The notes beneath the pieces are model-generated. The model was not told where the DNA came from. It did not search any database and worked only from the letters and a program-made list of their open reading frames with translations. DNA of 63,270 nucleotides from Styela clava (lineage: Eukaryota), in assembly GCF_964204865.1 (NCBI RefSeq), contig NW_027556749.1, forward strand, positions 124,001 through 187,270, given 5' to 3'. Below are positions 3,551 through 60,332 of this stretch, in pieces (the first letter of the stretch is position 1; each line of letters begins with the position of its first letter). The translations under genes and the position numbers were made by a program.

Positions 3551-6500
3551 CTAATGTCCGCTCTCTCTTCTAACTGATAAGTTAAATTTTGTTGGGAAGA
3601 CCAAATTATAATTACCATTAGCGTTAAATGTTCATTTTATATCGTTTAAAGCAACATTATTTCTCATATGGTAGTAAACGTAAAATGGATGACGATAAAC
3701 GTCGTTATTTGTTAATCATCATATATCTCCTCAATATAATAAGTCGCCAGTTGCTTTTGTTCATTTAATATTCCCTTTAATATTAACACCTGTTTTTGTT
3801 GCGAAATAGTGGTTGTAAAGATTTGCGTTCAATTGTCATGGACTCGCTGATTTTAACGTTGAGTGAAAATATGTTTTTGTTGTTGATGAGGTTGCGTTGT
3901 AATTGTCAGTGGTTACTAAATATTGAAAAGTTTTGTTTGTTGTGTCGCCAGTTTGTTTTGGTACTAAAAATGAATGTCATCTAACATTAGACGTATTAAG
4001 AGGCGGTTCGATATGAATATCAAAAGAATACAATCCATCTTTAAATTCTTTAGAATTACCAGTATTTAAGGTAACAAAAAACGAGTTACTAAAGTATTTT
4101 AATTGGGATCCTACTCTGTCAATGATTGGAAAACTTGTTTTTTTTCCAACTCCAGCGAAGTAAGTATTAGCTTCAATGTTGTTTGATGAATCCATTTTTG
4201 TAATTGTTGAACCAGTACCTATAACGTCTACTCATGGGTGGGGAGTGTGTAACATTTCAAGACGACTACGTGCTGTTTCGAATATTTCGGTACTCCCTAG
4301 ATCTTTAAATTGAGAATCTGTTATATTGTCATTACCAATATTTTCGATTAATGTTTGACCTTCCACTTTTGCTTCATATTGTGTAATTAAATGTCTGAAT
4401 TGTGCTTCTGTAAGACCATGTGTTTCAGAATATGCTTTAGGTGAGTTTTCACCAAATATTGAATTATAATCATCTGTTCCTTTAGTTCATTGAAAGTCAA
4501 CATTTGCTAAAACAGTTTCAATTTCTGATACACTAATAGGTTTATAATAACCATAAGAAGCATATAATTGACGTCTAGAATCAACATGAGTTATTCGTTC
4601 TAATATAGTTTTTGTGTCTTTATAATTTAATCCAGAAGTATATGTTTCAACTTTTTCGAATGGATAATACTTATATATTTTTAAATGTGAATTATCACGA
4701 ATATAATATGAGTTATTTATCGAATTAATTCGTGATGAGTAAGAGACAGGTGCTTTTAATATGTCAATCAATTTATCTTTTTGTGAACCTGTTGGTCTGT
4801 CAGTTCATCTCAAACCTTCAGCATTATTATCCTCATCGTAAGGTTCCATTTCTGGATCAACAATTTTTGTTTCTAGAGGTGCCAATCGGTTCTCTAATAA
4901 TGTATCTACTTGATGCTTTGTATAATGAGCTCCAATTAGAGCGAAGTAATTTTTCAAATAATCATAACCATCAATCCCAAAAAATTTTCCTTTTTGATTA
5001 GTGAAAACAGGTATTGAAGGAAAGTTTGATCTTGATGGATCTAGATAAGTGAAACGATTTTCTCATGATTGAGCAATTTCGTCTTGTGGGTCGGGATTTG
5101 AAATAACGTGATTTTGATAATCTTCAACGAATGAGTACACAGAATTAACATACTTTATGCTAAGATTAGCACCATCAGTATTAAAAGGTTCTTCAACAAA
5201 TTGACCATGAGATCCAATTAAATCAGAACTTCCGTCTTTGCTAAATTTTATAACAGCATAGTTTCTTAGTAAATTAATACAGTACAAACTAGGGTCAACA
5301 ATGTTAGCAATAATATATAATTCGTCATCTTGAACAAACAAGTCATAAACTTTGTATGTATCAAACTTAGTCATGTCAAGATCTGGTACTTCAGCTCTTA
5401 TGAAGTCAATTTGGTCGTCTCTCAACTGTTCATTTCAACCATGAAAAGATTCAATTGACGCGTTATTAACAGCTTTCACGCTTAGAGATTTGTCAGCTAA
5501 TAAGTCATAAAATTCATCTTCTGTTAAATGATTCAATAATGAATATTTTTCAGGAGTACTTGCTATGTTTAGTACGTTAGTTGCCCGAGTTGTGTCAACG
5601 TCTCTAAATTCTTTATAAATTTTTCCTAAATCAGATCTTTTTACATGAATAATATGACTTAATACACTAGTAGTTCCATCTTTTCTTATGTAATTACTTA
5701 ATGTATAGTTAGAACCACATAGATTATTAATTCAAGTCAATAAAGCAAAATGTTTTTGATAATCTGTTAAATCATTTCAATCAGTAGGTCCTCTGTAATA
5801 TTGTCAAATATCACGAATTACACAACTTTCTTCTTTGAAATTACAAATTTGGTAAATATCAACTTTGTCATTTATATCAAGAGAAAGAGGTTGCGAAATT
5901 ATATTACTTCCATATCCTTCTTGAACAAGACTATAATATTCAGCTTCTGTATTTAAAACAGTAACTAAAGTTTGAAGCTTCTCAGTAGTTGGAACAGTTG
6001 TTCAAGGAATAGTGTCTCTGTTTAATATTAAATCTTCTGTTCTGAGTATTCCATTAAATTTTGCGTCGATTTGAGGTTTGTTATATGTATCTGCTATTTT
6101 AGCATATAATTTGTGGTTAATTTCATCTGGTAAATTAGTAAGGGCTTTAAATTCTCTAAGAAGATTGAAAAATTCAGTTTGAGATAGACTGTTATAAGCA
6201 GAATAAAATTTAGGAGCACTAGCTCATACATTTGGACTACTAGTACTTTTATAATATCGTCCACTATCAATCAATTTTTGAATATCCCCAGTTCTTCAAT
6301 AAATAGGTTGAACATCATTATCATAACTTGTTCCTAAAATGTCATTTATTCTATAAATTCTTTTTAGTACAGTAGATAATTCATCTAAAACATCATGTTT
6401 AATACCATCTTTAGTAAAAGGTACTCGTTTATCTATATAATCATCATAAGCTATTATATAAGCTGTTTTGTGATTATTTTGACTATGATTACCATATCAA

Positions 6501-9500
6501 TGATCTGGTTCACTTAAAACCGCTAATAATTTTTCACGTTGAGATGCTGTAGGTACTTCTTCTCATTTCAATCCTGTAGGATTTGTATTAACATCATAAG
6601 GTAATAATTCAATATTAGTTACCTCAGTTTCTAATTCTGATAAACGATTATTTAACTGAGCGTCTATTTGTTGACGAGTATATATAGTATCTTTTGTAGC
6701 AAAAAAATTTTTAAGATACTTAAATCCATTAATACCAAACATTTTTCCTTTTAAATTTGTAAATACGGGCATTGTTGGAAAATTTGAAGCTTCTGGTACA
6801 TTATAATTAAAACGATTATTTCAAGTACTTGTATCATAGTTATCATCTTGATCTGGGTTTGAAATAACATGATTGTAACCATCTTCCAAAAAAGAATAAG
6901 TTGAGTTAACATAATTTAGACTTAAATTAGCATTGTTTTCATTGAAAGGTGCTTCAATTGTTGTAACATAAGTATTTCCTGTAACAGCTCGAATATCACC
7001 AACAGTAAATTTTAAAGGAGCAGTATTACGTAATAAATTTAAAGCTATAATACCTGCTTGTGTCGCATATTTATAAGAAACAATATAAAGGCTATCGTTA
7101 TAATCAAATAAGTCATAAATTTTATATTCATTTAATTTGTTTTCGTCATAGAAGGAAACTTCTCCACGAATAAGATCAATCTGTTCATTTGTAAATGGAG
7201 CATTTCAATCTTCAAATGACTCGATTGTAGTATGTGATTTTATATCTGTTTTTAAAGCAAAAAACTTTTTTAAATAACTATACGCTTTAACACCAAAAAT
7301 CTTCCCCTTTCTGTTTGTAAATACTGGTAGTGTAGGATAGTTTGAATATTCTGGTGTTATATATTTTAATCTAGTTTCTCAATCGCCAAATACTGATCCA
7401 CCTGGTATTGGGGTAGAAATAGCCTGATTATCGTGGTCTTCAATTCAACTGTAAATTGAGTTTATATATTTTAAGTTTAAGTTTGCCAGCTCAGTATCAT
7501 AAGGACCCATAATTGCTTTTACGTGATCTCCTTGAATAGCTATTAACTCTGCAGTTTTATTAAATATTCTAACAGCTTGGTTTCTTAACAAATTAATAGC
7601 AAATATATTTTCATTATTTAAAAGACGAGCACAAACGAAAACCTGATCACCAAAAGTAAATAAATCTAATACTTTGTAATCATCAAATTTGGCTCAATCA
7701 AAAGCATGAATATCTTCTTTAATAATATCAATTTGTTCGTCTGTCAATTGTGTTTCTCAATCAATAAAAGAATCCATTGACACTTTAGTTAAGTTTTCAA
7801 TTTTCCCTCTAAGTAAGTTATAAAAATCTTCTTGTTGTAAATGATTTTTTTCGCTATAAAGTTTTGGTGTTTTAACAATACCCTCTTCTTCGGCTACATC
7901 ACTATCATTATCTGTTTCAAAATGTTTGAAAAGCAAAGCTAGATCTGAACGTTTTATATGTACGATGTGACTTAACTCTTCAACTTCGCCATTTGGTTTT
8001 GTGTAATTACTTAATACATAAGTTGAACTACATATATCATTAATTCAAGCTAATAAAGTTGCTCGTTTTTGATACTCAGTCAAATCGTCTCAATCACCAG
8101 GTCCTTTGTAGAGACTTCATGCGTCTTTAATAGCATAAGTTTTTTCGCCAAAGTTAACGATTTTATAGATATTTATTTTGTCGCCAACATTTAAACTCAA
8201 AGGTTGTGTTGCGTAGTCACCTCCATACCCTTCTTCTTCTAAAGCATAATAAGTTTCAGGAATTTTAAGAGTTGATAATAAGGCTGTTTTTTGAGCTTCA
8301 CTTGGTGTTTTTTCTCAACCTAATGTTAGTTCTGACAATAAAGGATTTGTAGTTCTAAAAATAGAATCAATTTTTGTATCAATTTGAGGTCTAGTATATG
8401 TGTCTTTTTTTGTAGCATAAACGGTTTCGCCTGTTTCGATTTGGTGTAATTTAGCAAAAGAATCATTTAAAAAACCTAGAGCATTTACACCATATATAGT
8501 ACCATCTTCAGTAGTGAAAATAGGAAATGTTGGTAAATGACCTTCTAAGAATGTAAATCTTTTATTATAACTTTCAACAATATCTTCAGGTGTTGAGTGA
8601 GAAATTGGATGCGTTTTAACATATTTAATTCAAGATAAAATAGAACTAATGTATTGTAAATTTAAATTTGCGCCTCTTGTATTATAAGGACTTGGTAAAG
8701 TATCGTCATATGGAATAATACGTACTTTATTACCATTTCTTCTAATTTCAAAAGGTGATAAATTTTTTAATAATGGAGCAATAATTCAGTCTACATTATC
8801 TGGTGTTTTACTAACAAAAATATATACTTCACCATCATAAAAAATTTTATCAAAAAGTTTATAGTCACTATATTTAGTAGAATCATAATTTTTAACATTT
8901 CTAGCAATATCATCAAGTTGAGAGTCGGTTAGTTGTTGCTTCCATCCTGCAAAAGAATCTAATGCAACATCAACACTACTAGATTTTACCATATTATCAA
9001 CACGTGTGATAATTGTGTTTTTAACAAAATGATTATAAAACTGCTCTTTTGTATAACCATATTCGTCAGATCATTTTTGTGGTGTGCTGAAATTAGACTC
9101 AAATGAATAAACTGGTGGTTGTTGTGAATTTATAAAATATTCATAAAGTTTTCCTAAATCGCTTCTTCTAATAGGATTAATATGATCTAATTTTGTAACA
9201 CTACCTCCAATATGTTCAAAGTCACTTCTTTTATAACTAGATCCACATCTTCTATTTACAAATTTTAAAGCTTCATCGTGTTTTTGATCTTCAGTTAAGT
9301 CATCTCAATCTGAAGGAAATTCAACAGTATCTTTTTTTCATAAACTTCAAATATCTTGAATAAAAGTTTGTGGTATACCAAAGTTATTAAATTTATAAAG
9401 ATAAACTTTTTCTTCTGTACGGAGCGTTAAAGGATTATGAGCTCAATCACTTGATCATTTTCCAACGTTTAATCCATAAAAGGTTTCGGGGACTTTAAAA

Positions 9501-12007
9501 ACGTCAGCTAAAACTGCTCGTTGGTCGTCTAATGGTACTGATGTTCAAGGTAAAGTAGTTTCGTTTAAAAGTAAATCATCTAATCGTAATAAACCTTCAA
9601 GTTTACTATCAATTTCTGCTTTATTATATGTATCTCTTTTATAAGCAAACGTTATATTATTATGTAAAATAGAATGTATAGTGTTAAGCCCTGAATCTGA
9701 ATATAACAATTGTTTAACATCACCATTAACTTGTTTCAAATACATTTTACCATCTTTTTCAAAATAATAAAGTGAATCCAAAAATGTTGATGTTCTGTCG
9801 TCTGATGCTAAACTTTCAATTAAAGGATGATGTAAAACTGTGCTATGATTATCAGCACCTTTTATTGTTGGATCTATTAATGCTATTCCAGTGTCAGGAG
9901 CACCTGTTTCAAAACCAACAATTGTATGACCCGCTGTATAAAAAGGAACAAATCCATGTTCTGTATCTTCGCCATTATAAACACTTGTAAGTAAGTCAAT
10001 GAAAAAATTTTCGCCCGAAGTATCAACAGTTGGCGCGTGTTTTTTAACGTACTCAAGAGCTAAAGCAGTTTCTTTAACTGTCAAAATACCTTTAGTTCCA
10101 TTTAGTTCGTCGGGATGTAATGTACTTGTATGTCTTCAAACTTGACGTTTATATTTGTTTATAAGATAAGTATAAGTACTATCTTTAGCAAATGTAATAT
10201 AAATTTCACCACTATAATAAACTAAATCATTTACTTTTAAGTTACTTAATGAATTAACATCAGTATCATCATAAATTACAGAAATTAGTTTATCTAATTC
10301 AATCAACTCAGCAACTTGACTGTGTGATACATGATTTTCAATTTTAAAAACGTCAGTCTGTGATGGACTTATTTCATCTTTTTTTACAAAAATACTTGAT
10401 AAGTACTTAGTAGCATTAATACCTATAATAGTGTTACCTTTTCCATTAATAAATACTGGTAACATTGGTGTATTACTATCAAGAAATGAAAATCTAGAAT
10501 TATAATCTAATTGTGTTCCTTGATTAGTTGGGTCTGAAATTGGGTGATCATATATATCTTTAATTCATGTTAAAATAGAATTAGTATAATGTAAATTTAA
10601 ATTAGCGTTATTTACGTTGTAAGGGCTAGGTATACTAGAATTATAATCAAGTAATTGACCATTAAAATTAGCTCCTTGTTTTACAATCGTAATAACTGGT
10701 TTATTTCTATATAGTGGAACAACTGTCAATTGTGATGTCGATACATTTGTAACAACATAAGTATCACTACCATAAATAAATTGGTCAAATACTTTATATA
10801 TATCAAATTTAGTTAAGTCGAATGTATCAGTTGATGTTTGAAGATGTTCAATTTGTTCATCTGTATATTGAGCTTCTCAGTCACCAAAAGATTCTATATA
10901 ACTTTGTTGAGACGAAATTTCTGGTATTTCGTGAGTAGGATGTTCTAGATTTTCATCTAATAGATTAGTACTTTTTAAATACTCAGTTATTAATCTATTC
11001 ATGTCAGCTAATCCAACTTTCTCATTTCAAGCACGAACAAATTCTATGTAAGTGATTGGTCGTAATTCGAAGTTAGACAACCCTTCTATAATTTCACTAT
11101 CTTGGTCGTTTACATTAAAAGGTGTCGTACAATTTTGCCCTATGGGATCTATTAATGTAGCTTTTTTAACTAATCCTGCAGCCACTAATAAATTAACAAC
11201 TTCTTTTGGTAAATAACCAATAGGTCATGAGTTGGCTACATTTTCAGAAAGTCCATTAACAGATTCAGAAACTTGGCGCCCTTCAAAATTGATTCCGTGT
11301 TGAATATAATAAGCAGATAACAATACTAAAGCTTTACGTAAAAACTTAACTTTGTCTTTAGTAGTATGACTTAATAAAGTAACATAAGATGTAATTTTAC
11401 CTTCTGTTACAGCGTCAATACGTTCATAAGCATTATAAATAATACGTTCGTATTGTTCAGTTTTATATTTTCTATTAATTAATGCTTCAACATCTCTAGC
11501 ATATATATAAGGTGCCGACTCGGCTCTTGAATCGTTTAAACTTTTCTTATATAAAATAATATTACTACTAGAAATCAAACTATCAATTATTAATTTAATA
11601 TCACTATTTTCTTTATTATACTCAATATTAAAATTTGCTATTGACTTTAATTCGTTATCAATATCACGTCGTGTAACTATAGTACTAAAATCATTATTGT
11701 TAGCTCTCTTTATAAAAGGATAAACATTTTCATAATTAATAACCCTTTCATAATAAGTTTTCCTTAAATTTAATCATTGTAAAAAATCATTAAAATTTGT
11801 AGGTGCTATAAGGTCATCAGTAAAAAGTGCTATAGAAGTGTTATAATTTAAAGTATATGTATTAATAGTTGATATTTCATTAGTTACTTGTATTAATAAT
11901 TCAGTTAAAGTTTTGTTTTCACTGTTATTTATAATACTTGACTTGAAAGTTTCAATATTGTCAAAAATAGAGTTATATTTAGTTTGAAATTCTAGTAATG
12001 TTGTCAT
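3551..12007 (-). CDS. Giant repeat-module fibre/adhesin (2818 aa) with N-terminal head-tail adaptor-like domain
   Basis: Nine track ORFs share one frame separated only by TGA, and the gaps I read contain no TAA/TAG until 3551. Two module types repeat internally. Confidence 0.8.
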
Positions 12008-12675: not shown

Positions 12676-13988
12676 CTAAGATCCACCAATGTCATAAATT
12701 GTTTTACCTGCTGGTAATTTAATACCATACAAGAATTTTTGACATAATCCCTTTCATTTAGAGATTCCATACAAAGCTTTCAACCCTGTAACAATATTAC
12801 CTGTTTGTGGAATTATAGCTGATCACACATAAGGTGCCCCCGCTAATACCATAACTGGTGAATTTTTTTCAGGCGAAATGTATTGTAAGATCGCAATATA
12901 TTGAGATAAGTCTGCTCCTAAATCTCCAGTAATTGCTGTACTATATGTTGGCATATAAACTGCGTTAGCTGGTGACGAAGGAATAGTAGCTAATCCTGTG
13001 TTTGCGTCTAGTGGAAGGGTGTCTGCAGCCGAAGTACTTGTAACTTCTGAAAGACTGTTAGCAATTTCAGTATAAGTAGCTCCAGGTTTTCCTTTAGGTC
13101 AGATTTTACCTAAAAGGATTGATACTTCAGCTTTCAAACCTCCAATTTTCAAGTTATTATCCTCGAATTCTTGATAGTTGCTTGTATCTAATCCAACTTT
13201 GGCGTTTACGATAGCTAATAAATTTTTGATGTGGGGTGCTACAATCAAAACTAAATTAGTTCCCACTTTACCATAAAGACTTGTACGTGTTTTCAATGAT
13301 TGAATCATGTTTAAGAATTTATGAAGGAAAGTGATTCCCGCAAAACGTGAGTCAGCATTTGTGGCTGCAATATCTTCGTCTGTAAGTTGTAAAACGTTAC
13401 TTTTAGCTTCTGAATCAGTTTCAAGAGCTTCGATAACTGCTTTAAAGTAATGAAGATTAACACGATTTTTATAATTACTTCATCTTTGTGCCAAAAGAGC
13501 AGAATAGACGAATCCACTATGTAAAAATAATGATTTGTCTAATTGTTCCATAGGATTGAATTCAAAGTGCGAAAATGTCATTCCAATAGTTTTTTTATCC
13601 ACTCCTGGATATGTTGGATTGACAGGTGCTGTTGAATTGAACCCATTAGAAAGAGCTAATTGGTGTGAATATGATGAAGTTCCATGCCCAGATGCTAAAA
13701 CTCATGTTTTTTGGAGAGTTCCATTTTGATCTCTGTGCATGTTAACAATCCCTAATTTGAAAATTGTGTCATAATCAATATTTGGAATTGTTGGGATTTG
13801 AGATAAATTGATTGATTGAACAATTTCATTACCTTTAAATGAATATAGAATAACGAATGATTTGTATCGGTAGATTCCGCTGCAATTAATTGTGATTCTG
13901 TTAATGTTTGCCCTGGAATTCCTTCAATAGCAGATTTAGTAGTCGCATTGATAGTTCCAAAAGCTTGGTCTTGACTTAGTGTTGCCAT
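12676..13988 (-). pseudogene. Major capsid protein, frameshifted in this copy
   Basis: Lacks CCTT at 13840/13841 relative to the intact copy at 59016..60332. Confidence 0.75.
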
Positions 13989-14624: not shown

Positions 14625-14709
14625 AAATTTCTCCTATTATATAATAAGAAGGGATCTTAAAGTTGATGACGATAAGGAGGTACTAGTCGAAATAAACTTT
14701 ATACCCCTT

Positions 14710-14758
14710 CATATATATATATGTACAAAAACACTAAAAAAGATTTAATTATTTTTAA
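14710..14758 (-). promoter_or_regulatory. 49-bp putative late promoter (identical to 27295..27343)
   Basis: Exact reverse complement of 27295..27343; lies 85 bp upstream of the scaffold ATG. Confidence 0.7.
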
Positions 14759-14852: not shown

Positions 14853-15008
14853 TACCCTAGGACCCTAAAAAAAGCTTGGGATATCCTCGGGCTTGACTTT
14901 CTCGCGTTCTTGTGATATAATAAAAGGGGGTACCCTAGGACCCTAAAAAAAGCTTGGGATATCCTCGGGCTTGACTTTCTCGCGTTCTTGTGATATAATA
15001 AAAGGGGG
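14853..15008 (+). repeat. Tandem duplication of a 78-bp unit, each containing a sigma70 promoter
   Basis: Units start at 14853 and 14931; TTGACT-17bp-TATAAT at 14893..14921 and 14971..14999. The second genome copy has a single unit. Confidence 0.92.
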
Positions 15009-15051
15009 TACCTTTTCACGTTCTCGATCGTTGAGATAAAAAAAAAAGTAC

Positions 15052-15080
15052 TTGACAAAATAAAAATTTTAATATATAAT
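15052..15080 (+). promoter_or_regulatory. Consensus sigma70 promoter
   Basis: TTGACA-17bp-TATAAT exact match. Confidence 0.8.
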
Positions 15081-19244: not shown

Positions 19245-19538
19245 ATGAAAAATAAATTAGAATATGAAAGTTATTTATCAAACGCAAAATCTTTAATAAG
19301 AAATGATAAATTAAGCGTTAAAGATTTGGAAAAATCATTCAAAGTTGTAAGTAATAATATACTAAAATTAAAAAGTGAAATTTTAAAAAATGTAGTAAAA
19401 GGCGAAAGCGTTTGAGTTGATAATCATAATAAAGAAAACTATGAAAGTATATTAAAAGCTATCGAGTACTGCCTTTACAATTATAATTTAATTAAAGAAG
19501 GAGAAGATAAAGAATATGATGAACAAGAAACTAGTTAA
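19245..19538 (+). CDS. Paralog-family small protein (97 aa)
   Basis: AGGAGGT RBS; C-terminal KAIEYCLYNYNLIK motif. Confidence 0.75.
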
Positions 19539-20767: not shown

Positions 20768-21665
20768 ATTAGATAAATATTATACAAAACAAAAAATAGC
20801 TAATAAGTTAACAACATATATATATGCGGTTTTAAAATATTATAAAATTGATTATAACAATTTAACATGAATTGAACCTAGCGCCGGCGAAGGAGTGTTT
20901 GTTGACGCTTTAGAACAAGTATTAGACATAAAACCTAAAATTCTGTGCTATGATATTGATGAAGATTTAAAGAACAAAAGAGTCATTAAACAAGACTTTT
21001 TAAAGGTTAATCTAAAGCATTCGGCGAAAAATATAATTTTTGGAAATCCACCATTTGGTCGATCTGGACAGTTAGCAATTGACTTTATCAATAAGGCTTC
21101 AAAAATTGCTGATATTGTTTGTTTTATAGTACCTAATACTTTGCGACGATATTCAACTCAAAAAAAATTAAATAACGACCTAAAATTGATTGTAGAATTA
21201 ACTGTTGATCAAAATGCTTTCGAGTATAAAAACAAAACAAAAAATTTCAATTGCTCATTTCAAATTTGAGTCAATAAAAATCGAGAAGAATTTAAAGACG
21301 GAAAAAATTTGAGATTATTAGAAAAACAACCGTTTCGAGTTCCTTCTGTAAAGACGTTTATTTACAATAACACAAAAAAGACTGTCAAATTTTTTGATAA
21401 GGCTAAATACAAGTGGGACGTGGGTATACCTCGACAAGGTTTTTGCGACTACTCAAAATTAATTACAGATCAAAAAGAGTTAAAGACAACTCAACAGTAT
21501 ATGTTTATTAAATATAATGATGAGTTAGCAAAAAAAGTTGTTGAGTTAATAGATTTTGAAGAACTGTCACATAGTAATACAATTGTACCAGGTTTTTCGA
21601 CAACAGATTTTATAAAAGAATATAATGAGATCAGGAAATTACAAGGAGGTCATAATTATGAATAA
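20757..21665 (+). CDS. N6-adenine DNA methyltransferase (302 aa), orphan
   Basis: DKYYT, motif I EPSAGEG and motif IV NPPF; the two track ORFs join across TGA (FQIW). Confidence 0.88.
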
Positions 21666-22203
21666 AACACCCATAATTTGCGTTTTTTTAGGTAATGATT
21701 CAAAAGAGTTATCAAATACTAGACATAATATTGGTTGACTTTTTTGCGATTTTATGGCTTTAATAACGGAAAATACATTTATTGAAAAAAAACATTATTA
21801 TTACTTTAAAGATTACATTTGTACTGGTATTAGTCCAGTTTATTTTATTAAATTGAAAACACTAATGAATGATTCAGGAAAGATTTTGAGAAAAATTTGT
21901 CAAAAACAAAAATGAAATTATGATCAATTAATTATTTTTGCCGATAATACGGATTTAAAACTAACAAAATTTAAAATAAAAAATCATATATGTAATAATG
22001 GTCATCGTGGAACACACGACATAGTTGAACAATTCAAAACTAATAAAATTAAAATGTTTTACTTAGGAATAGATAGACAGAAAAATTTAAAACAATGAGT
22101 GTTGTCTCAATTTGAGGATAAAGAAATTTTGTTTTTGAACAAATATATTTTTCCGAAACTTTGAAATAAATTTGAAGAAAGTTTAAAGTTGAATATGATA
22201 TAA
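21658..22203 (+). CDS. pth: Peptidyl-tRNA hydrolase (181 aa)
   Basis: LGN..TRHNIG, KTLMNDSG, DNTDL, GHRG, LGIDR and VLSQF in canonical Pth order and length. Confidence 0.88.
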
Positions 22204-22542: not shown

Positions 22543-22575
22543 AAAACAAGAAGAAAAAAAGGAGAAAAAAGAATA

Positions 22576-22782
22576 ATGAAAACATATAAAATTTGAATGA
22601 AAGATAAAAAAGAGTTGGATAAATTGGAAAGTATACTATGAGATTTAAAAATTGAATATGATGCTAGAACTAGTATTGAAAGTACAATATTATCACCAAA
22701 AGGGGACAAAGACAATACTATTTGAGATAAAAAAGGTTTTTATGTAACAATTAAAACGTTTGAAAAAGGAGGAAAAGAATAA
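22576..22782 (+). CDS. Hypothetical protein (68 aa)
   Basis: AAGGAG RBS; code-4 frame. Confidence 0.65.
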
Positions 22783-23537
22783 TGAATAATTTTTCGGATG
22801 GAAATGGAAAATATAAAAAAATATCTAGTGACGAATTAAAACAATTAGAAAAAAAAATGGAAAATACACTTATTAGTGCTGTTGAAAAAATGAATTGCGG
22901 TGTGGTTTATTGTGATTGAATGAGATGGGATGAGTCACCACATGAACCTTTGAGAGGTCGTTTTGTCGTCACTATTGAGTCTATGGGTCATAGATTTGAC
23001 TTTGTAAACTTTAATATTCATATTTTAGAAAAAAAACCTAGACGATGATATCATTTAGAAGATAGTGATAATGACAAAATCGAAGTTTATTTAATACTTG
23101 AGGATTTTGAAAAATTAGATGATTATCTTGAAGAATTTAAAAAAACTATTAGAAAAGAAATGCGTTCAATTATACGAGCTAAAAATTGAAACCAATTGTA
23201 TAGTTATAATTTTGAAAATATTCGTATTAAAAAAGTTTGAGAAATTGGAAAAAAATATTTTGGTGATAATGATTTGACAAATACTTACCTCGAAGGTAAA
23301 GTTTCACGTCGCGCTTTCAACAAATATCGAAAAGCACTTATTAAAATAGTAAACACAAGACTTTCAAATTGAAAAAAAGGCGATGACCCTAAAATATTTA
23401 TTGGCGTATATGCTATTTTAGATTGAGAAAAAGAAAACGTTGAAAAAATAAAGACAATTAATAGAATTAGAAAAGAAATTGCTAATCAAAAATTTACGAA
23501 AAAAAGAGGATCGTATAAATATAAAGGAGAAGAATAA
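22782..23537 (+). CDS. Hypothetical protein (251 aa)
   Basis: AGGAGG RBS; TAATG coupling; code-4 frame. Confidence 0.7.
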
Positions 23538-26402: not shown

Positions 26403-26781
26403 AAATAATAAAGAAAATAATGATTTAGGGGTATATAGTGATGATATTGATATTATGTTAGAAGTTGCCAATGAAGTATTTTGTAGAACAGTATCGTTAA
26501 GTTGAAGTACATGACAAAAAGTTCATGGTTATCAGAGTGCTACCTTAGTAAAACATTCATCAAAAATGAATACGTCTAAATTGTTAAATACTCGACGAAC
26601 TATTTTGACATGTAAAGCAATTTGATCACTATCGAAAAATATTTTAAAATTGGAAGATAATGATAAAAATAGAATAAAATGTTATAGAGAAGGGTTACGT
26701 TTTTATGTTACAGTGTGACCACCTACTATGTCATGATATCGAGAATTTAAAGGATTTTTAAAGAAATGAAAAAAAAAATAG
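26395..26781 (+). CDS. Hypothetical protein (128 aa)
   Basis: AAGGAG RBS; code-4 frame. Confidence 0.6.
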
Positions 26782-27308
26782 ATATATTATATAATAAGTA
26801 TGTTGAAACAAAAGACAAAAAAATTCTAAATAGAATCAAATATGAGATGATGGATATAGCAAAAAAAACATGTAAAGTTGTTTCACATATAAAAACAAAA
26901 GGTTATAGTGATCCAAAAACAATGTACAGTTTCTGTTTTGAACGGTTTGATAAAATAATAAACGATTATGAACCTACACATAAAACAACGTTGAGTACAT
27001 ATACTGCTATTTGTCTTTGAAATTATTTAAGAAGTAGACAATATCATAAAAGTTTAGACATTACAAAATCTAGAATTTATACAACACGATCATTAGATAC
27101 TTTTAATAATGACAAATTAAAGTTAGATTTAAAGAGTATTTTAGGCGATACTTTTGATTATAAATTAATATGTGACTATATTGGACTCAATGGAAAGAAA
27201 TTAAAAAATAAAGAATTAGCTAAAATATATAATAAACCTTTAGGTTCTATAAAAACAAGACTACGAACTATTGAAAAGGAACTTAGAAAATATTTTAAAA
27301 ATAATTAA
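26766..27308 (+). CDS. RNA polymerase sigma70-family factor (180 aa)
   Basis: Region-2-like DKIINDYEPTHKTTLSTYTAICLWNYL; region-4 HTH IGLNGKKLKNKELAKIYNKPLGSIKTRLRTIEKELRK. Confidence 0.78.
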
Positions 27309-27343
27309 ATCTTTTTTAGTGTTTTTGTACATATATATATATG
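27295..27343 (+). promoter_or_regulatory. 49-bp putative late promoter upstream of the tRNA array
   Basis: Identical to 14710..14758 in inverted orientation; overlaps the sigma stop codon. Confidence 0.7.
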
Positions 27344-27550
27344 GAGGGTCTCAAAAAACCTCTAGTCCTAAATACATAAAATTTAAGAGTAACAAACTCC
27401 GCCTTGTTACTAAATTAACTTTTTGACTTTAAACTGTTAGACACGGGTGCGTCTTTAACCACACTACAGTTTGAAAAGGTACTATAACCTTTTAGTCAAG
27501 TCGTGACTTAAACCGACTTAACTACCTCTGTTAACGCGGAGGTGGTTTTT
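27343..27550 (+). ncRNA. Structured leader/ncRNA ending in a terminator-like hairpin
   Basis: Several stems: AGTAACAA/TTGTTACT, AAACTGT/ACAGTTT, AAAAGGT/ACCTTTT, TTGACT/AGTCAA, AAGTCG/CGACTT and ACTACCTCTG/CGGAGGTGGT followed by a T run. Confidence 0.5.
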
Positions 27551-29158: not shown

Positions 29159-29458
29159 ATGACAAATGAAGAAAAACGAATGTATGATTGATACATTTGA
29201 TCAGTTTCAACAATGATACAAAAAAATATGATTGATTTAAGAACTCTAAAAAATCAAGTAAAAGAGTTAAGATATATGTTAATGGCTGATTTTGAAGGAC
29301 CACCTCCACATTGAGAGTCTGAATATGTGAATCCACGATATTTCACAATCTTAGAAATTGTAAAAAAGAAAGAAGAGGCTATGCAGTATGGTGTTGATAA
29401 TTACGACAAAATAAAACAAGGTAAAAAAATGAAAGAAAAATGAGATGACAACAGATAA
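29159..29458 (+). CDS. Paralog-family small protein (99 aa)
   Basis: EAMQYGVDNYDKIK motif; N-terminus similar to the 30646 gene. Confidence 0.7.
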
Positions 29459-29482
29459 GATTACATCTTAGGAGAAAAAAAT

Positions 29483-29797
29483 ATGTTATATAGAATAGAA
29501 AAATATGATATGATTCATAGAGATTGAGCAAAACACGCAACATCACAAATATATAATGATTATGTTAAATATTGTGAAATATTAATAGAAAAAGATGACT
29601 TACAATTAGAAGATCTTAAAGAATCATTAGATTTAGTTAAATACTCTATATTGAATTTGACAGAAACAATTTTAAAATGTATAAAAGAAGGGCAATCAAT
29701 TATGCCACACAACAGTCTTTTAGAACATAAAATTGAAATTAAAACAGCTTTAGAATATTGTATTAAAAATTTTAATAATATTAAGGAGGTTTGATAA
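29483..29797 (+). CDS. Paralog-family small protein (104 aa)
   Basis: AGGAG RBS; TALEYCIKNFNNIK. Confidence 0.75.
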
Positions 29798-29799
29798 TA

Positions 29800-30003
29800 A
29801 TGTTGACAGATGCGCAAGCTAAAGAAGACATGAAGTTTTTAACAGAAAAAGGAAAAGTGGAGTTACTCACCATTAAACATTGAGTAGAAGAAAAAGATTT
29901 TAAGTTAAAAAAATTGTTACAATTATCACTTAGAGTTGAAGAAACAAATAAAGCAATAAAATATTGTATTAAAAATTATAATAAAATAAAGGAGAAAAAA
30001 TAA
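29800..30003 (+). CDS. Paralog-family small protein (67 aa)
   Basis: AAGGAGGT RBS; KAIKYCIKNYNKIK. Confidence 0.72.
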
Positions 30004-30656
30004 TGAAAACAACAAATGAAAAATTAATAGGAACTATAATGACATTACTAATAGAAGAAGATGGGCTAAGTTGAACTAAACAGTTAACAGACAAACAAAT
30101 TGATTTAATCAAAAAATATATACCACAATATGATCCAAAAAAAATATACAAACAATTTGATACTTTTGTATATAAAGATGTAGTTTGTGTTGTAGAAACA
30201 TATGATCTAGGTTATATGTGAGCGTATCCTTTACTAAAGAATAGCGCTGAAAAATATAGTAGCGCAGGTGATGGAACATTAATTAAACTTTATGATGAGT
30301 ATGATTCAACATTACCAAAACCTTTTAACAAACTAGATGCTAATTTAAATTTGGAATATATGAATTCGATTTATAACTGAATTGGAGATGGCGCACCTGA
30401 ATCTTTAAAATTTAAATATATTAACACAAAAAAAACATTTAAAAAGTTAGATACTATACATGAAAGTCATAAAATTTTAGGTGTGGCATTTAGTAAAGTA
30501 ATCGACGTTTATTTGAAACCAATTTTAGAACGTATTGAAAAACTTGAAAAAAAAGTAGAAGATTTACCAACACGTGCCGTAATTGGAGACTGCTTATATC
30601 CAATAGGTAAACGTATTGAAAAACTCGAAGACAAGGTTAAGAATAATGACAAATAA
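30003..30656 (+). CDS. Stand-alone copy of fibre repeat module A (217 aa)
   Basis: WTKQLTDKQIDLI...YKQFDTFVY...PLLKN...YDSTLPKPFNKLDANLNLEYMNSIYNWI matches the modules of 3551..12007. Confidence 0.8.
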
Positions 30657-30915
30657 TGATATATATAAAAAATTTATCAAACATGTTTCAGTATTAGTGA
30701 TAAATAATTTAATTAATTTAGAAAATTTAAAAGATATGTTGACTATAACAAAAAATGAAATATTAGAACGTTCAGAAGAAATTATTAAAAAGATGTACCG
30801 CAGAGAATGAGGAGAAATAACTTTCAACGAAGAAATACAATTAGAATGTATTATGATTAAAAAAGCATTGGAACATTGTATCAAAAATTTCGATAAAATC
30901 AAAGGAGAAAAATAA
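30646..30915 (+). CDS. Paralog-family small protein (89 aa)
   Basis: KALEHCIKNFDKIK. Confidence 0.75.
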
Positions 30916-31283
30916 TGATTAGAGATTGAGAATGAGAATATAGCGAAAGAGAAAAATATTTAGAAAAAAATAGAAGATTTGTATTATCAAGTAATGATAG
31001 ATTTTATAATAGTAACGATGAATCAGATTATAGAATTATAGAAGACTTGATAATATATGAAATATATAATAAACATATGACTATTAAAGATCTTAAAAAA
31101 TTATTTTATGAATATAGCACGCGAGAGTTTGAAGAAAAAAGAAACCATTTTAAAAAATTTCAAATTACATCATTAGAAAGTGTACGACAAATAGGTATAA
31201 TTACTCGACATTGTGAAGCTATGAAGAATTTATTAAGTTTTCATATTATTAAACAAGAAGAAAAAAAGGAGAAAAAAGAATAA
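30915..31283 (+). CDS. Hypothetical protein (122 aa)
   Basis: AAGGAG RBS; TAATG coupling. Confidence 0.7.
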
Positions 31284-31588
31284 TGTATTACGACCCAGAA
31301 ACAGATGTAACAACATCACCAAATATTGATCGTGAAGATTCACCATGAAAAATAGAATTAGAAAGATTTTATAATGAAAATAAAGAATTAAAAGAAAAAA
31401 ATAAAGAATTAGAAGAAAAAAATGAAGATTTGAAGTTTGAGATGTACTGTATGAAAATGAACAGATGTCCAAATATAATACGCCATTATAGATATTATAG
31501 TCGTTGTTGTAAGGATACTTGTTTTAGTTTACGAAAAGATCCTCATTTTAAACGATATTATAAATGTCGTTGCTGAACGGTCAACTAA
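31283..31588 (+). CDS. Coiled-coil, Cys-rich hypothetical protein (101 aa)
   Basis: AAGGAG RBS; TAATG coupling; seven Cys in the C-terminal half. Confidence 0.65.
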
Positions 31589-49890: not shown

Positions 49891-52800
49891 CTAATGTCCG
49901 CTCTCTCTTCTAACTGATAAGTTAAATTTTGTTGGGAAGACCAAATTATAATTACCATTAGCGTTAAATGTTCATTTTATATCGTTTAAAGCAACATTAT
50001 TTCTCATATGGTAGTAAACGTAAAATGGATGACGATAAACGTCGTTATTTGTTAATCATCATATATCTCCTCAATATAATAAGTCGCCAGTTGCTTTTGT
50101 TCATTTAATATTCCCTTTAATATTAACACCTGTTTTTGTTGCGAAATAGTGGTTGTAAAGATTTGCGTTCAATTGTCATGGACTCGCTGATTTTAACGTT
50201 GAGTGAAAATATGTTTTTGTTGTTGATGAGGTTGCGTTGTAATTGTCAGTGGTTACTAAATATTGAAAAGTTTTGTTTGTTGTGTCGCCAGTTTGTTTTG
50301 GTACTAAAAATGAATGTCATCTAACATTAGACGTATTAAGAGGCGGTTCGATATGAATATCAAAAGAATACAATCCATCTTTAAATTCTTTAGAATTACC
50401 AGTATTTAAGGTAACAAAAAACGAGTTACTAAAGTATTTTAATTGGGATCCTACTCTGTCAATGATTGGAAAACTTGTTTTTTTTCCAACTCCAGCGAAG
50501 TAAGTATTAGCTTCAATGTTGTTTGATGAATCCATTTTTGTAATTGTTGAACCAGTACCTATAACGTCTACTCATGGGTGGGGAGTGTGTAACATTTCAA
50601 GACGACTACGTGCTGTTTCGAATATTTCGGTACTCCCTAGATCTTTAAATTGAGAATCTGTTATATTGTCATTACCAATATTTTCGATTAATGTTTGACC
50701 TTCCACTTTTGCTTCATATTGTGTAATTAAATGTCTGAATTGTGCTTCTGTAAGACCATGTGTTTCAGAATATGCTTTAGGTGAGTTTTCACCAAATATT
50801 GAATTATAATCATCTGTTCCTTTAGTTCATTGAAAGTCAACATTTGCTAAAACAGTTTCAATTTCTGATACACTAATAGGTTTATAATAACCATAAGAAG
50901 CATATAATTGACGTCTAGAATCAACATGAGTTATTCGTTCTAATATAGTTTTTGTGTCTTTATAATTTAATCCAGAAGTATATGTTTCAACTTTTTCGAA
51001 TGGATAATACTTATATATTTTTAAATGTGAATTATCACGAATATAATATGAGTTATTTATCGAATTAATTCGTGATGAGTAAGAGACAGGTGCTTTTAAT
51101 ATGTCAATCAATTTATCTTTTTGTGAACCTGTTGGTCTGTCAGTTCATCTCAAACCTTCAGCATTATTATCCTCATCGTAAGGTTCCATTTCTGGATCAA
51201 CAATTTTTGTTTCTAGAGGTGCCAATCGGTTCTCTAATAATGTATCTACTTGATGCTTTGTATAATGAGCTCCAATTAGAGCGAAGTAATTTTTCAAATA
51301 ATCATAACCATCAATCCCAAAAAATTTTCCTTTTTGATTAGTGAAAACAGGTATTGAAGGAAAGTTTGATCTTGATGGATCTAGATAAGTGAAACGATTT
51401 TCTCATGATTGAGCAATTTCGTCTTGTGGGTCGGGATTTGAAATAACGTGATTTTGATAATCTTCAACGAATGAGTACACAGAATTAACATACTTTATGC
51501 TAAGATTAGCACCATCAGTATTAAAAGGTTCTTCAACAAATTGACCATGAGATCCAATTAAATCAGAACTTCCGTCTTTGCTAAATTTTATAACAGCATA
51601 GTTTCTTAGTAAATTAATACAGTACAAACTAGGGTCAACAATGTTAGCAATAATATATAATTCGTCATCTTGAACAAACAAGTCATAAACTTTGTATGTA
51701 TCAAACTTAGTCATGTCAAGATCTGGTACTTCAGCTCTTATGAAGTCAATTTGGTCGTCTCTCAACTGTTCATTTCAACCATGAAAAGATTCAATTGACG
51801 CGTTATTAACAGCTTTCACGCTTAGAGATTTGTCAGCTAATAAGTCATAAAATTCATCTTCTGTTAAATGATTCAATAATGAATATTTTTCAGGAGTACT
51901 TGCTATGTTTAGTACGTTAGTTGCCCGAGTTGTGTCAACGTCTCTAAATTCTTTATAAATTTTTCCTAAATCAGATCTTTTTACATGAATAATATGACTT
52001 AATACACTAGTAGTTCCATCTTTTCTTATGTAATTACTTAATGTATAGTTAGAACCACATAGATTATTAATTCAAGTCAATAAAGCAAAATGTTTTTGAT
52101 AATCTGTTAAATCATTTCAATCAGTAGGTCCTCTGTAATATTGTCAAATATCACGAATTACACAACTTTCTTCTTTGAAATTACAAATTTGGTAAATATC
52201 AACTTTGTCATTTATATCAAGAGAAAGAGGTTGCGAAATTATATTACTTCCATATCCTTCTTGAACAAGACTATAATATTCAGCTTCTGTATTTAAAACA
52301 GTAACTAAAGTTTGAAGCTTCTCAGTAGTTGGAACAGTTGTTCAAGGAATAGTGTCTCTGTTTAATATTAAATCTTCTGTTCTGAGTATTCCATTAAATT
52401 TTGCGTCGATTTGAGGTTTGTTATATGTATCTGCTATTTTAGCATATAATTTGTGGTTAATTTCATCTGGTAAATTAGTAAGGGCTTTAAATTCTCTAAG
52501 AAGATTGAAAAATTCAGTTTGAGATAGACTGTTATAAGCAGAATAAAATTTAGGAGCACTAGCTCATACATTTGGACTACTAGTACTTTTATAATATCGT
52601 CCACTATCAATCAATTTTTGAATATCCCCAGTTCTTCAATAAATAGGTTGAACATCATTATCATAACTTGTTCCTAAAATGTCATTTATTCTATAAATTC
52701 TTTTTAGTACAGTAGATAATTCATCTAAAACATCATGTTTAATACCATCTTTAGTAAAAGGTACTCGTTTATCTATATAATCATCATAAGCTATTATATA

Positions 52801-55800
52801 AGCTGTTTTGTGATTATTTTGACTATGATTACCATATCAATGATCTGGTTCACTTAAAACCGCTAATAATTTTTCACGTTGAGATGCTGTAGGTACTTCT
52901 TCTCATTTCAATCCTGTAGGATTTGTATTAACATCATAAGGTAATAATTCAATATTAGTTACCTCAGTTTCTAATTCTGATAAACGATTATTTAACTGAG
53001 CGTCTATTTGTTGACGAGTATATATAGTATCTTTTGTAGCAAAAAAATTTTTAAGATACTTAAATCCATTAATACCAAACATTTTTCCTTTTAAATTTGT
53101 AAATACGGGCATTGTTGGAAAATTTGAAGCTTCTGGTACATTATAATTAAAACGATTATTTCAAGTACTTGTATCATAGTTATCATCTTGATCTGGGTTT
53201 GAAATAACATGATTGTAACCATCTTCCAAAAAAGAATAAGTTGAGTTAACATAATTTAGACTTAAATTAGCATTGTTTTCATTGAAAGGTGCTTCAATTG
53301 TTGTAACATAAGTATTTCCTGTAACAGCTCGAATATCACCAACAGTAAATTTTAAAGGAGCAGTATTACGTAATAAATTTAAAGCTATAATACCTGCTTG
53401 TGTCGCATATTTATAAGAAACAATATAAAGGCTATCGTTATAATCAAATAAGTCATAAATTTTATATTCATTTAATTTGTTTTCGTCATAGAAGGAAACT
53501 TCTCCACGAATAAGATCAATCTGTTCATTTGTAAATGGAGCATTTCAATCTTCAAATGACTCGATTGTAGTATGTGATTTTATATCTGTTTTTAAAGCAA
53601 AAAACTTTTTTAAATAACTATACGCTTTAACACCAAAAATCTTCCCCTTTCTGTTTGTAAATACTGGTAGTGTAGGATAGTTTGAATATTCTGGTGTTAT
53701 ATATTTTAATCTAGTTTCTCAATCGCCAAATACTGATCCACCTGGTATTGGGGTAGAAATAGCCTGATTATCGTGGTCTTCAATTCAACTGTAAATTGAG
53801 TTTATATATTTTAAGTTTAAGTTTGCCAGCTCAGTATCATAAGGACCCATAATTGCTTTTACGTGATCTCCTTGAATAGCTATTAACTCTGCAGTTTTAT
53901 TAAATATTCTAACAGCTTGGTTTCTTAACAAATTAATAGCAAATATATTTTCATTATTTAAAAGACGAGCACAAACGAAAACCTGATCACCAAAAGTAAA
54001 TAAATCTAATACTTTGTAATCATCAAATTTGGCTCAATCAAAAGCATGAATATCTTCTTTAATAATATCAATTTGTTCGTCTGTCAATTGTGTTTCTCAA
54101 TCAATAAAAGAATCCATTGACACTTTAGTTAAGTTTTCAATTTTCCCTCTAAGTAAGTTATAAAAATCTTCTTGTTGTAAATGATTTTTTTCGCTATAAA
54201 GTTTTGGTGTTTTAACAATACCCTCTTCTTCGGCTACATCACTATCATTATCTGTTTCAAAATGTTTGAAAAGCAAAGCTAGATCTGAACGTTTTATATG
54301 TACGATGTGACTTAACTCTTCAACTTCGCCATTTGGTTTTGTGTAATTACTTAATACATAAGTTGAACTACATATATCATTAATTCAAGCTAATAAAGTT
54401 GCTCGTTTTTGATACTCAGTCAAATCGTCTCAATCACCAGGTCCTTTGTAGAGACTTCATGCGTCTTTAATAGCATAAGTTTTTTCGCCAAAGTTAACGA
54501 TTTTATAGATATTTATTTTGTCGCCAACATTTAAACTCAAAGGTTGTGTTGCGTAGTCACCTCCATACCCTTCTTCTTCTAAAGCATAATAAGTTTCAGG
54601 AATTTTAAGAGTTGATAATAAGGCTGTTTTTTGAGCTTCACTTGGTGTTTTTTCTCAACCTAATGTTAGTTCTGACAATAAAGGATTTGTAGTTCTAAAA
54701 ATAGAATCAATTTTTGTATCAATTTGAGGTCTAGTATATGTGTCTTTTTTTGTAGCATAAACGGTTTCGCCTGTTTCGATTTGGTGTAATTTAGCAAAAG
54801 AATCATTTAAAAAACCTAGAGCATTTACACCATATATAGTACCATCTTCAGTAGTGAAAATAGGAAATGTTGGTAAATGACCTTCTAAGAATGTAAATCT
54901 TTTATTATAACTTTCAACAATATCTTCAGGTGTTGAGTGAGAAATTGGATGCGTTTTAACATATTTAATTCAAGATAAAATAGAACTAATGTATTGTAAA
55001 TTTAAATTTGCGCCTCTTGTATTATAAGGACTTGGTAAAGTATCGTCATATGGAATAATACGTACTTTATTACCATTTCTTCTAATTTCAAAAGGTGATA
55101 AATTTTTTAATAATGGAGCAATAATTCAGTCTACATTATCTGGTGTTTTACTAACAAAAATATATACTTCACCATCATAAAAAATTTTATCAAAAAGTTT
55201 ATAGTCACTATATTTAGTAGAATCATAATTTTTAACATTTCTAGCAATATCATCAAGTTGAGAGTCGGTTAGTTGTTGCTTCCATCCTGCAAAAGAATCT
55301 AATGCAACATCAACACTACTAGATTTTACCATATTATCAACACGTGTGATAATTGTGTTTTTAACAAAATGATTATAAAACTGCTCTTTTGTATAACCAT
55401 ATTCGTCAGATCATTTTTGTGGTGTGCTGAAATTAGACTCAAATGAATAAACTGGTGGTTGTTGTGAATTTATAAAATATTCATAAAGTTTTCCTAAATC
55501 GCTTCTTCTAATAGGATTAATATGATCTAATTTTGTAACACTACCTCCAATATGTTCAAAGTCACTTCTTTTATAACTAGATCCACATCTTCTATTTACA
55601 AATTTTAAAGCTTCATCGTGTTTTTGATCTTCAGTTAAGTCATCTCAATCTGAAGGAAATTCAACAGTATCTTTTTTTCATAAACTTCAAATATCTTGAA
55701 TAAAAGTTTGTGGTATACCAAAGTTATTAAATTTATAAAGATAAACTTTTTCTTCTGTACGGAGCGTTAAAGGATTATGAGCTCAATCACTTGATCATTT

Positions 55801-59015: not shown

Positions 59016-60332
59016 CTAAGATCCACCAATGTCATAAATTGTTTTACCTGCTGGTAATTTAATACCATACAAGAATTTTTGACATAATCCCTTTCATTTA
59101 GAGATTCCATACAAAGCTTTCAACCCTGTAACAATATTACCTGTTTGTGGAATTATAGCTGATCACACATAAGGTGCCCCCGCTAATACCATAACTGGTG
59201 AATTTTTTTCAGGCGAAATGTATTGTAAGATCGCAATATATTGAGATAAGTCTGCTCCTAAATCTCCAGTAATTGCTGTACTATATGTTGGCATATAAAC
59301 TGCGTTAGCTGGTGACGAAGGAATAGTAGCTAATCCTGTGTTTGCGTCTAGTGGAAGGGTGTCTGCAGCCGAAGTACTTGTAACTTCTGAAAGACTGTTA
59401 GCAATTTCAGTATAAGTAGCTCCAGGTTTTCCTTTAGGTCAGATTTTACCTAAAAGGATTGATACTTCAGCTTTCAAACCTCCAATTTTCAAGTTATTAT
59501 CCTCGAATTCTTGATAGTTGCTTGTATCTAATCCAACTTTGGCGTTTACGATAGCTAATAAATTTTTGATGTGGGGTGCTACAATCAAAACTAAATTAGT
59601 TCCCACTTTACCATAAAGACTTGTACGTGTTTTCAATGATTGAATCATGTTTAAGAATTTATGAAGGAAAGTGATTCCCGCAAAACGTGAGTCAGCATTT
59701 GTGGCTGCAATATCTTCGTCTGTAAGTTGTAAAACGTTACTTTTAGCTTCTGAATCAGTTTCAAGAGCTTCGATAACTGCTTTAAAGTAATGAAGATTAA
59801 CACGATTTTTATAATTACTTCATCTTTGTGCCAAAAGAGCAGAATAGACGAATCCACTATGTAAAAATAATGATTTGTCTAATTGTTCCATAGGATTGAA
59901 TTCAAAGTGCGAAAATGTCATTCCAATAGTTTTTTTATCCACTCCTGGATATGTTGGATTGACAGGTGCTGTTGAATTGAACCCATTAGAAAGAGCTAAT
60001 TGGTGTGAATATGATGAAGTTCCATGCCCAGATGCTAAAACTCATGTTTTTTGGAGAGTTCCATTTTGATCTCTGTGCATGTTAACAATCCCTAATTTGA
60101 AAATTGTGTCATAATCAATATTTGGAATTGTTGGGATTTGAGATAAATTGATTGATTGAACAATTTCATTACCTTTAAATCCTTGAATATAGAATAACGA
60201 ATGATTTGTATCGGTAGATTCCGCTGCAATTAATTGTGATTCTGTTAATGTTTGCCCTGGAATTCCTTCAATAGCAGATTTAGTAGTCGCATTGATAGTT
60301 CCAAAAGCTTGGTCTTGACTTAGTGTTGCCAT
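59016..60332 (-). CDS. Major capsid protein, intact (438 aa)
   Basis: Follows the scaffold; strong RBS; HK97-like segments LVLIVAPHIKNLL, KIGGLKAEVSILL and GLKALYGISK. Confidence 0.78.

Follow-up and report, generated by a model that had tools for sequence, protein, structure and literature searches.

A free-standing gene, S1, in the 63,270-nt stretch of DNA analysed here (the window) encodes a relative of the A modules of a predicted 2818-aa phage appendage protein, P0002. Judged by sequence comparison, S1 is an old paralogue under purifying selection and not a recent copy. Its product may be a soluble, likely trimeric mimic of A cores that titrates away whatever binds them inside the cell, a reading to which we assign a probability of about one in three. 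Coordinates are listed in Table 1.

Table 1. Features of the window that bear on S1 and its parent appendage protein.
Feature	Position	Strand	Remarks
Solo gene S1 (P0001)	30003..30656	+	217 aa under NCBI table 4; start overlaps upstream stop (TAATG)
Shine-Dalgarno-like AAGGAG	29989..29994	+	5' of the S1 start codon; read from sequence
A core of S1	30069..30389	+	aa 23-129: helix, five-strand beta-meander, helix
Coiled-coil-like tail of S1	30510..30653	+	two R-h-x-x-h-E motifs, aa 177-182 and 204-209
Direct repeat, left copy	29946..30006	+	paralogue gene end plus ribosome site; 82% over 62 nt vs right copy
Direct repeat, right copy	30859..30918	+	left and right pair encloses S1 and the next gene, cassette-like
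Empty S2 site	22764..22784	+	single 21-nt copy; relatives carry S2 between two copies
Sigma-70-like gene	26766..27308	+	just before the plus-strand element; NCBIfam E 0.001-0.02, below cut-offs
Repeated element	27287..27348	+	likely phage-sigma promoter (putative role) facing tRNA cluster and S1 block
Second element copy	14705..14758	-	98% alike; scaffold-capsid-appendage operon follows after 80 nt
Adaptor-fused appendage protein (P0002)	3551..12007	-	2818 aa; second copy 49891-58347, through the concatemer
Head-tail adaptor domain of P0002	11138..11524	-	phrog_541, E 2.2e-5
Module A1	10373..10900	-	
Module A2	8441..8965	-	module quoted in the original prediction
Module A3	7244..7780	-	
Module A4	6686..7228	-	then neck motif and R-h-x-x-h-E motif
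Module A5	4928..5458	-	then neck motif and R-h-x-x-h-E motif

The window is a concatemer of a phage genome of ~46.3 kb (repeat offset 46,340), in which the gene for the 2818-aa protein is present twice. When translation tables 11, 15 and 4 were compared, the long frames were open only under table 4. The reading of TGA as Trp is supported by an invariant Trp column, encoded by TGA in S1 and by TGG in module A2. The terminase (phrog_2, E 6e-25), DNA polymerase, primase, thymidine and thymidylate kinases and 12 tRNAs identify a tailed phage, and the genetic code indicates that the host is likely a Mollicute. A peptidyl-tRNA hydrolase (PF01195) is encoded at window positions 21625-22203, instead of a 411-aa protein found at C216:10936-12171 (L010) and C25:29438-30673, which by eye we take to resemble the N-terminal part of alanyl-tRNA synthetase. 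An 82-nt tandem repeat (14853-15080) has near-consensus sigma-70 promoter-like sites (11-12 of 12), and its copy number varies between the genome copies of the concatemer. A capsid-like gene is split (78 + 354 aa) at 12676-13988 and whole (438 aa) at 59016-60332, both on the minus strand; the split in the first genome copy is likely a sequencing indel.

The original prediction of a 217-aa plus-strand gene that escapes the code-11 ORF track was confirmed. The S1 frame is missing from the table-11 and table-15 ORF lists and was found under table 4, with three TGA codons translated as Trp. Its setting was also described correctly (~18 kb from the appendage gene, on the opposite strand, in a paralogue cluster): the distance is 17,996 nt, and small paralogue genes flank S1 at 29800 and 30646. 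Short-read contigs from four of four runs, representing two samples of one study and possibly the window's own source, span S1 with no differing letters and no gaps, so the gene is not an assembly error. The small helical paralogues (29159-30915 and 19245-19538) share a terminal motif like ALEYCIKNF and gave no family match. Many genes on the plus strand between 17346 and 39379 have GGKE, GGQE or KGEK as their ending, since their last codons contain the next ribosome site, and these ~20-nt gene junctions are exchange points for gene cassettes. A 35-nt exact repeat (22544-22578 and 31251-31285) was noted as well.

The S1 core (about aa 23-129) matches all five A modules of P0002 with 34-39% identity (E 2e-16 to 6e-15). 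Alignment of S1 aa 24-127 with P0002 aa 1022-1127 gave 39% identity and an E value of 2e-16; the Smith-Waterman score of this match is 166, compared with 48 +/- 7 (maximum 80) for 200 shuffles. The claimed likeness to module A is therefore significant and the quoted PLLKN match is real, but the five modules match about equally, not just the one near 8780-8625. S1 retains the N-terminal ~107 of ~175 module residues, and the C-terminal third is missing. With eight representative modules as the reference, 21 of 23 conserved core columns are kept in S1 versus 25 of 81 others (p 3e-7), along with one of the ten conserved columns of the C-terminal third. A second solo gene, S2 (197-198 aa, 43% identical to S1 in the core, at a different site), keeps 18/23 conserved columns versus 17/83 others. 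Thirteen columns, many of them polar, are invariant across 25 aligned copies; all lie within the core and all are kept in both solos. Since conserved columns are kept far above other columns, purifying selection appears to act on S1. S1 and S2 are each monomorphic.

Phylogeny of the modules had been proposed as a check for gene conversion. Run on 25 cores, it separated S1 and S2 from every module class by one branch (89/86, not starred), in a tree that is unrooted and in which both solos are long branches. A two-residue deletion is common to S1 and S2. A sister relation between S1 and A2 was rejected (AU p = 0.006), and an S1 + A4 clade was not (p 0.154). S1 and the appendage gene share no exact DNA tract longer than 14 nt, and five unrelated control genes gave 12-14 nt. 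No S1- or S2-like core was found among 23 appendage modules. The tree placement outside the modules and the lack of a shared DNA tract above background point to an old paralogue that is kept as a protein and not as a donor.

P0002 begins with a head-tail adaptor domain, and the "fibre" label of the original prediction is refined accordingly. In this domain aa 9-119 of 129 align with positions 6-122 of 129 of the phrog_541 profile, and four of four aligned members match. Because of the adaptor fusion P0002 is likely a trimeric neck appendage; it is predicted to be of a type common to phages of one host, with a presumptive position in the virion. Head-tail adaptors assemble as 12-mers, so the fusion would yield four trimeric fibres per neck. 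Adaptors fused to repeat appendages of 1200-2900 aa were also seen at L027, L031 and L036, and the literature searched held nothing relevant on adaptor-appendage fusions. P0002 aa 575-625 (window about 10130-10285, minus strand) hold a sixth A-like segment that is partial and degenerate (6 bits).

In unrelated elements of the assembly, the P0002 modules also follow neck proteins of other kinds. One such element is a second large-phage lineage, whose terminase is 32% and whose appendage is 74% alike; module A is also carried by three 12-16-kb contigs and by an 11.9-kb unit that has a terminase and a portal of its own. By eye, we take the three contigs to be phi29-like. These small phages and the 11.9-kb unit (contigs C317, C271, C120 and C221) share appendage modules with the large phages. 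The unit has terminase, portal and capsid-like genes and no polymerase was seen in it; it may be a satellite. C120 and C221 carry ten G-X-Y (collagen) repeats ahead of the shared modules, which may imply a trimer. The window's own P0002 has none.

No outside relative of S1 was found among 238 candidates. A 25-row core profile found none at near lengths and one (P0003) at longer lengths, and a HMMER search of 1.84 billion proteins gave three matches. P0003 is a true appendage relative; P0004, a collagen protein with CBM5/12 repeats, is a weak match; and P0005 was judged a chance, repeat-inflated match and was rejected. The CBM5/12 repeats of P0004 show a weak in-register likeness to the cores: nine of 25 members score above the best of 500 shuffles (S1 is not among the nine), the hhalign probability is 26%, and S1 itself scores -1.6 bits. 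The CBM5/12 profile PF02839 matches 0/25 members and nothing in the assembly. Searches of viral contigs, metagenome contigs, genomes and GenBank phages found no loci; these used table 11 or exact peptides, so the blanks are weak. No family match for the solo was found in Pfam, PHROG, NCBIfam, PADLOC or PDB. The literature searched contains no account of the domain family, nor of a fibre-domain paralogue tested as a decoy. It was concluded that the domain family is without a library entry and has one outside relative; the arrangement of a remote copy has a precedent in Shimadzu orf43.

Comparison of appendage alleles located the swapped parts. The appendages of C25 and C57 are 93-100% identical in most regions, with 61% identity in the A3 core and 87% in the A3 C part. 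Between the window and C216, core and C part are 60% and 86% identical in A2 and 66% and 85% in A3; the A4 core is 49% identical, the B modules 84-92% and the tip 91%. A5, whose position comes closest to that of the small phages' module, is conserved (93-99%). The C1 and C2 regions of the appendage are variable too, so variation is not exclusive to A. As far as these alignments go, the part kept in the solos is the part swapped between appendage alleles. S1 accompanies the window's own A2 and A4 alleles and the A2 and A4 modules of S2 carriers are 91-98% alike, a single contrast. A3 alleles do not track solo type.

Among the 26 contigs of the assembly that have a large-phage terminase, 21 hold exactly one solo gene (S1 in three, S2 in 18, both in none); these come from one assembly and about three backbones and amount to few independent cases. 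The other five contigs (9-26 kb) end before the solo site. S2 is a precise cassette between two 21-nt repeats. Its DNA is identical in 6/6 contigs examined, from a few codons past the start and behind three different upstream genes, and the identical DNA spans backbones with terminases 32% alike, which suggests mobility like that of an accessory conflict gene. In the four small elements, module A is confined to the appendage gene and no solo occurs, with completeness shown for C221 only. Of 682 small ORFs, the solos alone copy part of a long protein, barring three frame-broken pieces of C271's own appendage gene.

R-h-x-x-h-E motifs occur twice in S1, once in S2 and twice in P0002 (directly after A4 and A5), and seven times in 16,960 aa of window ORFs. 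This motif is described as favouring parallel trimeric coiled coils, and has also been seen in some dimers (PMC3653964). The coiled-coil tail of the original prediction thus stands at the motif level, and S1 is predicted to be a soluble trimer through this tail. With a profile of the post-A coil, the solo tails ranked outside the top 15 of 682 ORFs, so homology of the tail to the coil after A4 and A5 is unsupported.

The AlphaFold2 model of S1 has a pLDDT of 75-92 over aa 21-140 and is unsure past aa 145. Its core consists of a helix, a beta-meander and a helix, and a model of module A4 gave a similar core; the two models share nearly one alignment. Foldseek with both models gave E > 0.06 throughout, and in structure searches the best Z scores (3.3 and 4.0) were to Tudor/SH3-like barrels with no clear fold match. 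These searches show neither a known nor a new fold. S1 has no transmembrane segment: its maximum 19-aa hydropathy is 1.22 (at aa 158), and the maxima of the two solos (1.22 and 0.50) compare with 2.3-2.8 in three controls. No signal peptide, lipobox or N-terminal Cys was found in S1, which has Cys at positions 62 and 197 only. For the receptor-masking or exclusion factor proposed originally, a membrane type is therefore not supported, and masking could occur only after lysis.

The window's sigma-70-like gene is 67% identical to its orthologue in C216 (phrog_1740, E 3.6e-5), and C216 has both element copies in its own version. The element (54-62 nt) changes in concert with the sigma-70-like gene and is likely its cognate phage promoter, judging from this covariation, for the structural operon and the tRNA cluster. 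Neither C25 nor C57 yielded the twin element. From the plus-strand element it is 2.7 kb downstream to S1, with no plus-strand terminator-like site in between; in C216 both the sigma gene and the element are downstream of S2. Because the element that precedes both is likely a phage-sigma promoter, S1 may be made together with the appendage. Its place among non-structural genes, as the original prediction put it, is thus an uncertain guide to timing, since the same element also precedes the structural operon.

In the decoy reading, S1 would be expressed before or with the appendage gene and would trimerise through its tail, displaying the A core in the cytoplasm. The A cores of the appendage would contact a host molecule. 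S1 would occupy a protein of the host, or of a co-resident element, that otherwise binds the A cores of new appendages; such a partner might be a defence sensor or an assembly inhibitor. A decoy fits best because S1 would be a cytoplasmic, likely trimeric display of a contact core, present before or with the appendage and located in mobile accessory slots. The presence of module A in all phage types of the assembly would make it a broad target for a sensor. There are reports that fibre knobs set sensitivity to Thoeris II (10.64898/2026.06.04.730250), that Tai proteins target a central tail fibre (PMC11364771) and that DSAD1 blocks DSR2 through tail-tube mimicry (PMC10973363). Several findings count against a decoy. 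The identity of S1 to the modules is only 34-42%, and no higher for those of its own phage than for others; a faithful mimic could trigger the sensor instead of blocking it; A5 is conserved, so not all A cores are variable; S2 may have spread by hitchhiking with a near-identical downstream gene; and the four small elements have module A without a solo, which a chaperone explains equally well or better. The host genome is absent from the assembly, which is eukaryotic and gave no bacterial rpoB over the cut-off. We put forward as tentative a wider claim: in the code-4 community the host would sense a domain common to every infecting phage, and each large phage must therefore carry one decoy, derived from the swappable contact domain of its own neck appendage, fitted with a trimer tail and exchanged as a cassette that matches the appendage alleles. 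If true, this would amount to counter-defence based on self-paralogy, in a domain family not described before.

A chaperone is, beside the decoy, the other of the two leading readings, and both had been named in the original prediction. The solo trimer may instead template or cap A modules during folding of the very long appendage. Large phages, with their 4-5 A modules, have the solos and 0/4 small elements with one module do, S1 follows an element of the structural-operon type at 2.7 kb without an intervening plus-strand terminator-like site, and each solo goes with its own A2/A4 alleles (one contrast). This aid to assembly is nevertheless doubtful: fibre chaperones usually adjoin the fibre gene (10.64898/2026.06.04.730250), whereas the solos are remote (S1 by 18 kb), at two sites and in mobile slots. 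The position of S2 in C216, upstream of the sigma gene and the element, and the independence of A3 alleles from solo type also argue against it.

Trimers freed at lysis could also bind receptor on debris or nearby cells, sparing progeny from inactivation or excluding rival phages that rely on this module. This reading rests on receptor binding by A. The A cores do behave like host-contact domains, the 13 invariant residues are kept in both solos, and the likeness to CBM5/12 sugar-binding repeats is in register. However, that likeness is weak and was picked out of 1.8 billion proteins searched, the C-terminal tip rather than A may bind the receptor, and S1, lacking an export or anchor signal, could act only after lysis. 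We consider such a scavenger unlikely.

It is highly unlikely that the solo enters and spoils the appendages of co-infecting small phages or of the satellite-like element. Module A and the neck after it are common to these elements, and when S1 is compared with all long proteins by BLAST, the modules of C120 and C317 match best (E 1e-17), but the margin over its own phage's modules is small, its own appendage has five such modules that are likely made simultaneously, and the post-A coil profile did not pick out the solo tails. A minor virion decoration encoded outside the structural operon would agree with possible co-regulation with structural genes and with the predicted trimer; no capsid- or neck-attachment domain was seen in the solo and S2 is in an earlier position, which makes this very improbable. 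Scarcely credible is a silent DNA donor for module swapping, as first suggested, or a decaying duplicate, for although A cores are swapped between appendage alleles, S1 shares no DNA tract above control level, its sister relation to the quoted module was rejected, no module is solo-like, the solos share one side of a branch, and the intact frame is conserved at the protein level with its ribosome site and coupled start retained.

Stand-alone copies of virion domains are a recurrent find among the accessory genes of phages. S1 is an unusually well-controlled case, with two old, mutually replacing alleles, an empty site, small phages that have the domain and no solo, and a swapped core that is also the copied core. 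A soluble domain of 107 residues makes the decoy, chaperone and scavenger ideas testable. It could expose a receptor or a defence sensor in TGA-recoding bacteria (likely Mollicutes), whose phage entry is sparsely covered: a review (PMC13375369) mentions 'receptor' twice and 'tail fib' never.

The solos can be compared with several known systems. T5 Llp and Cor are membrane exclusion lipoproteins that neutralise the phage's receptor; the solo differs from them in having no signal peptide, lipobox or membrane segment. Tfa, gp38 and gp57A are tail-fibre chaperones. Two others, A5 gp9 and V22 gp27, are reported to lie in the host-recognition module and to resemble intramolecular chaperone domains (PMC10579305). 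Like S1 in the assembly reading, such chaperones are small trimer-forming fibre helpers, and fibre modules common to unrelated phages of one host are described in the same source, but the solo is remote from the appendage gene (18 kb, opposite strand; S2 is likewise remote) and homologous to an internal repeat. In Roseburia phage Shimadzu, orf43 (the second target of a diversity-generating retroelement) is reported as a gene of unknown function that lies apart from the tail gene and has a variable stretch in common with it (10.1101/575076). The solo differs in having no reverse transcriptase match and no shared DNA repeat, in being monomorphic in reads and in being an old paralogue. S1 was itself considered as a second target of this kind and rejected (no reverse transcriptase among 41 ORFs scanned, shared tract of 14 nt, no variants in S1). 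With Tai/Ati and type II Thoeris, fibre domains are the targets of intracellular defence, which is the pressure that a decoy needs; in the accounts cited here the counter-defences are not described as copies of fibre domains and the hosts are Proteobacteria (PMC11364771; 10.64898/2026.06.04.730250). Closest to the decoy reading is DSAD1 of phage SPbeta, a phage protein that imitates a virion part to block a sensor. S1 likewise resembles a virion protein (module A, E 2e-16), as the adaptor fusion marks P0002 as a virion part. Binding of DSAD1 is proven by structure and the protein is called a mimic, not a tail-tube paralogue, in the source (PMC10973363), whereas S1 is a true paralogue of the appendage module.
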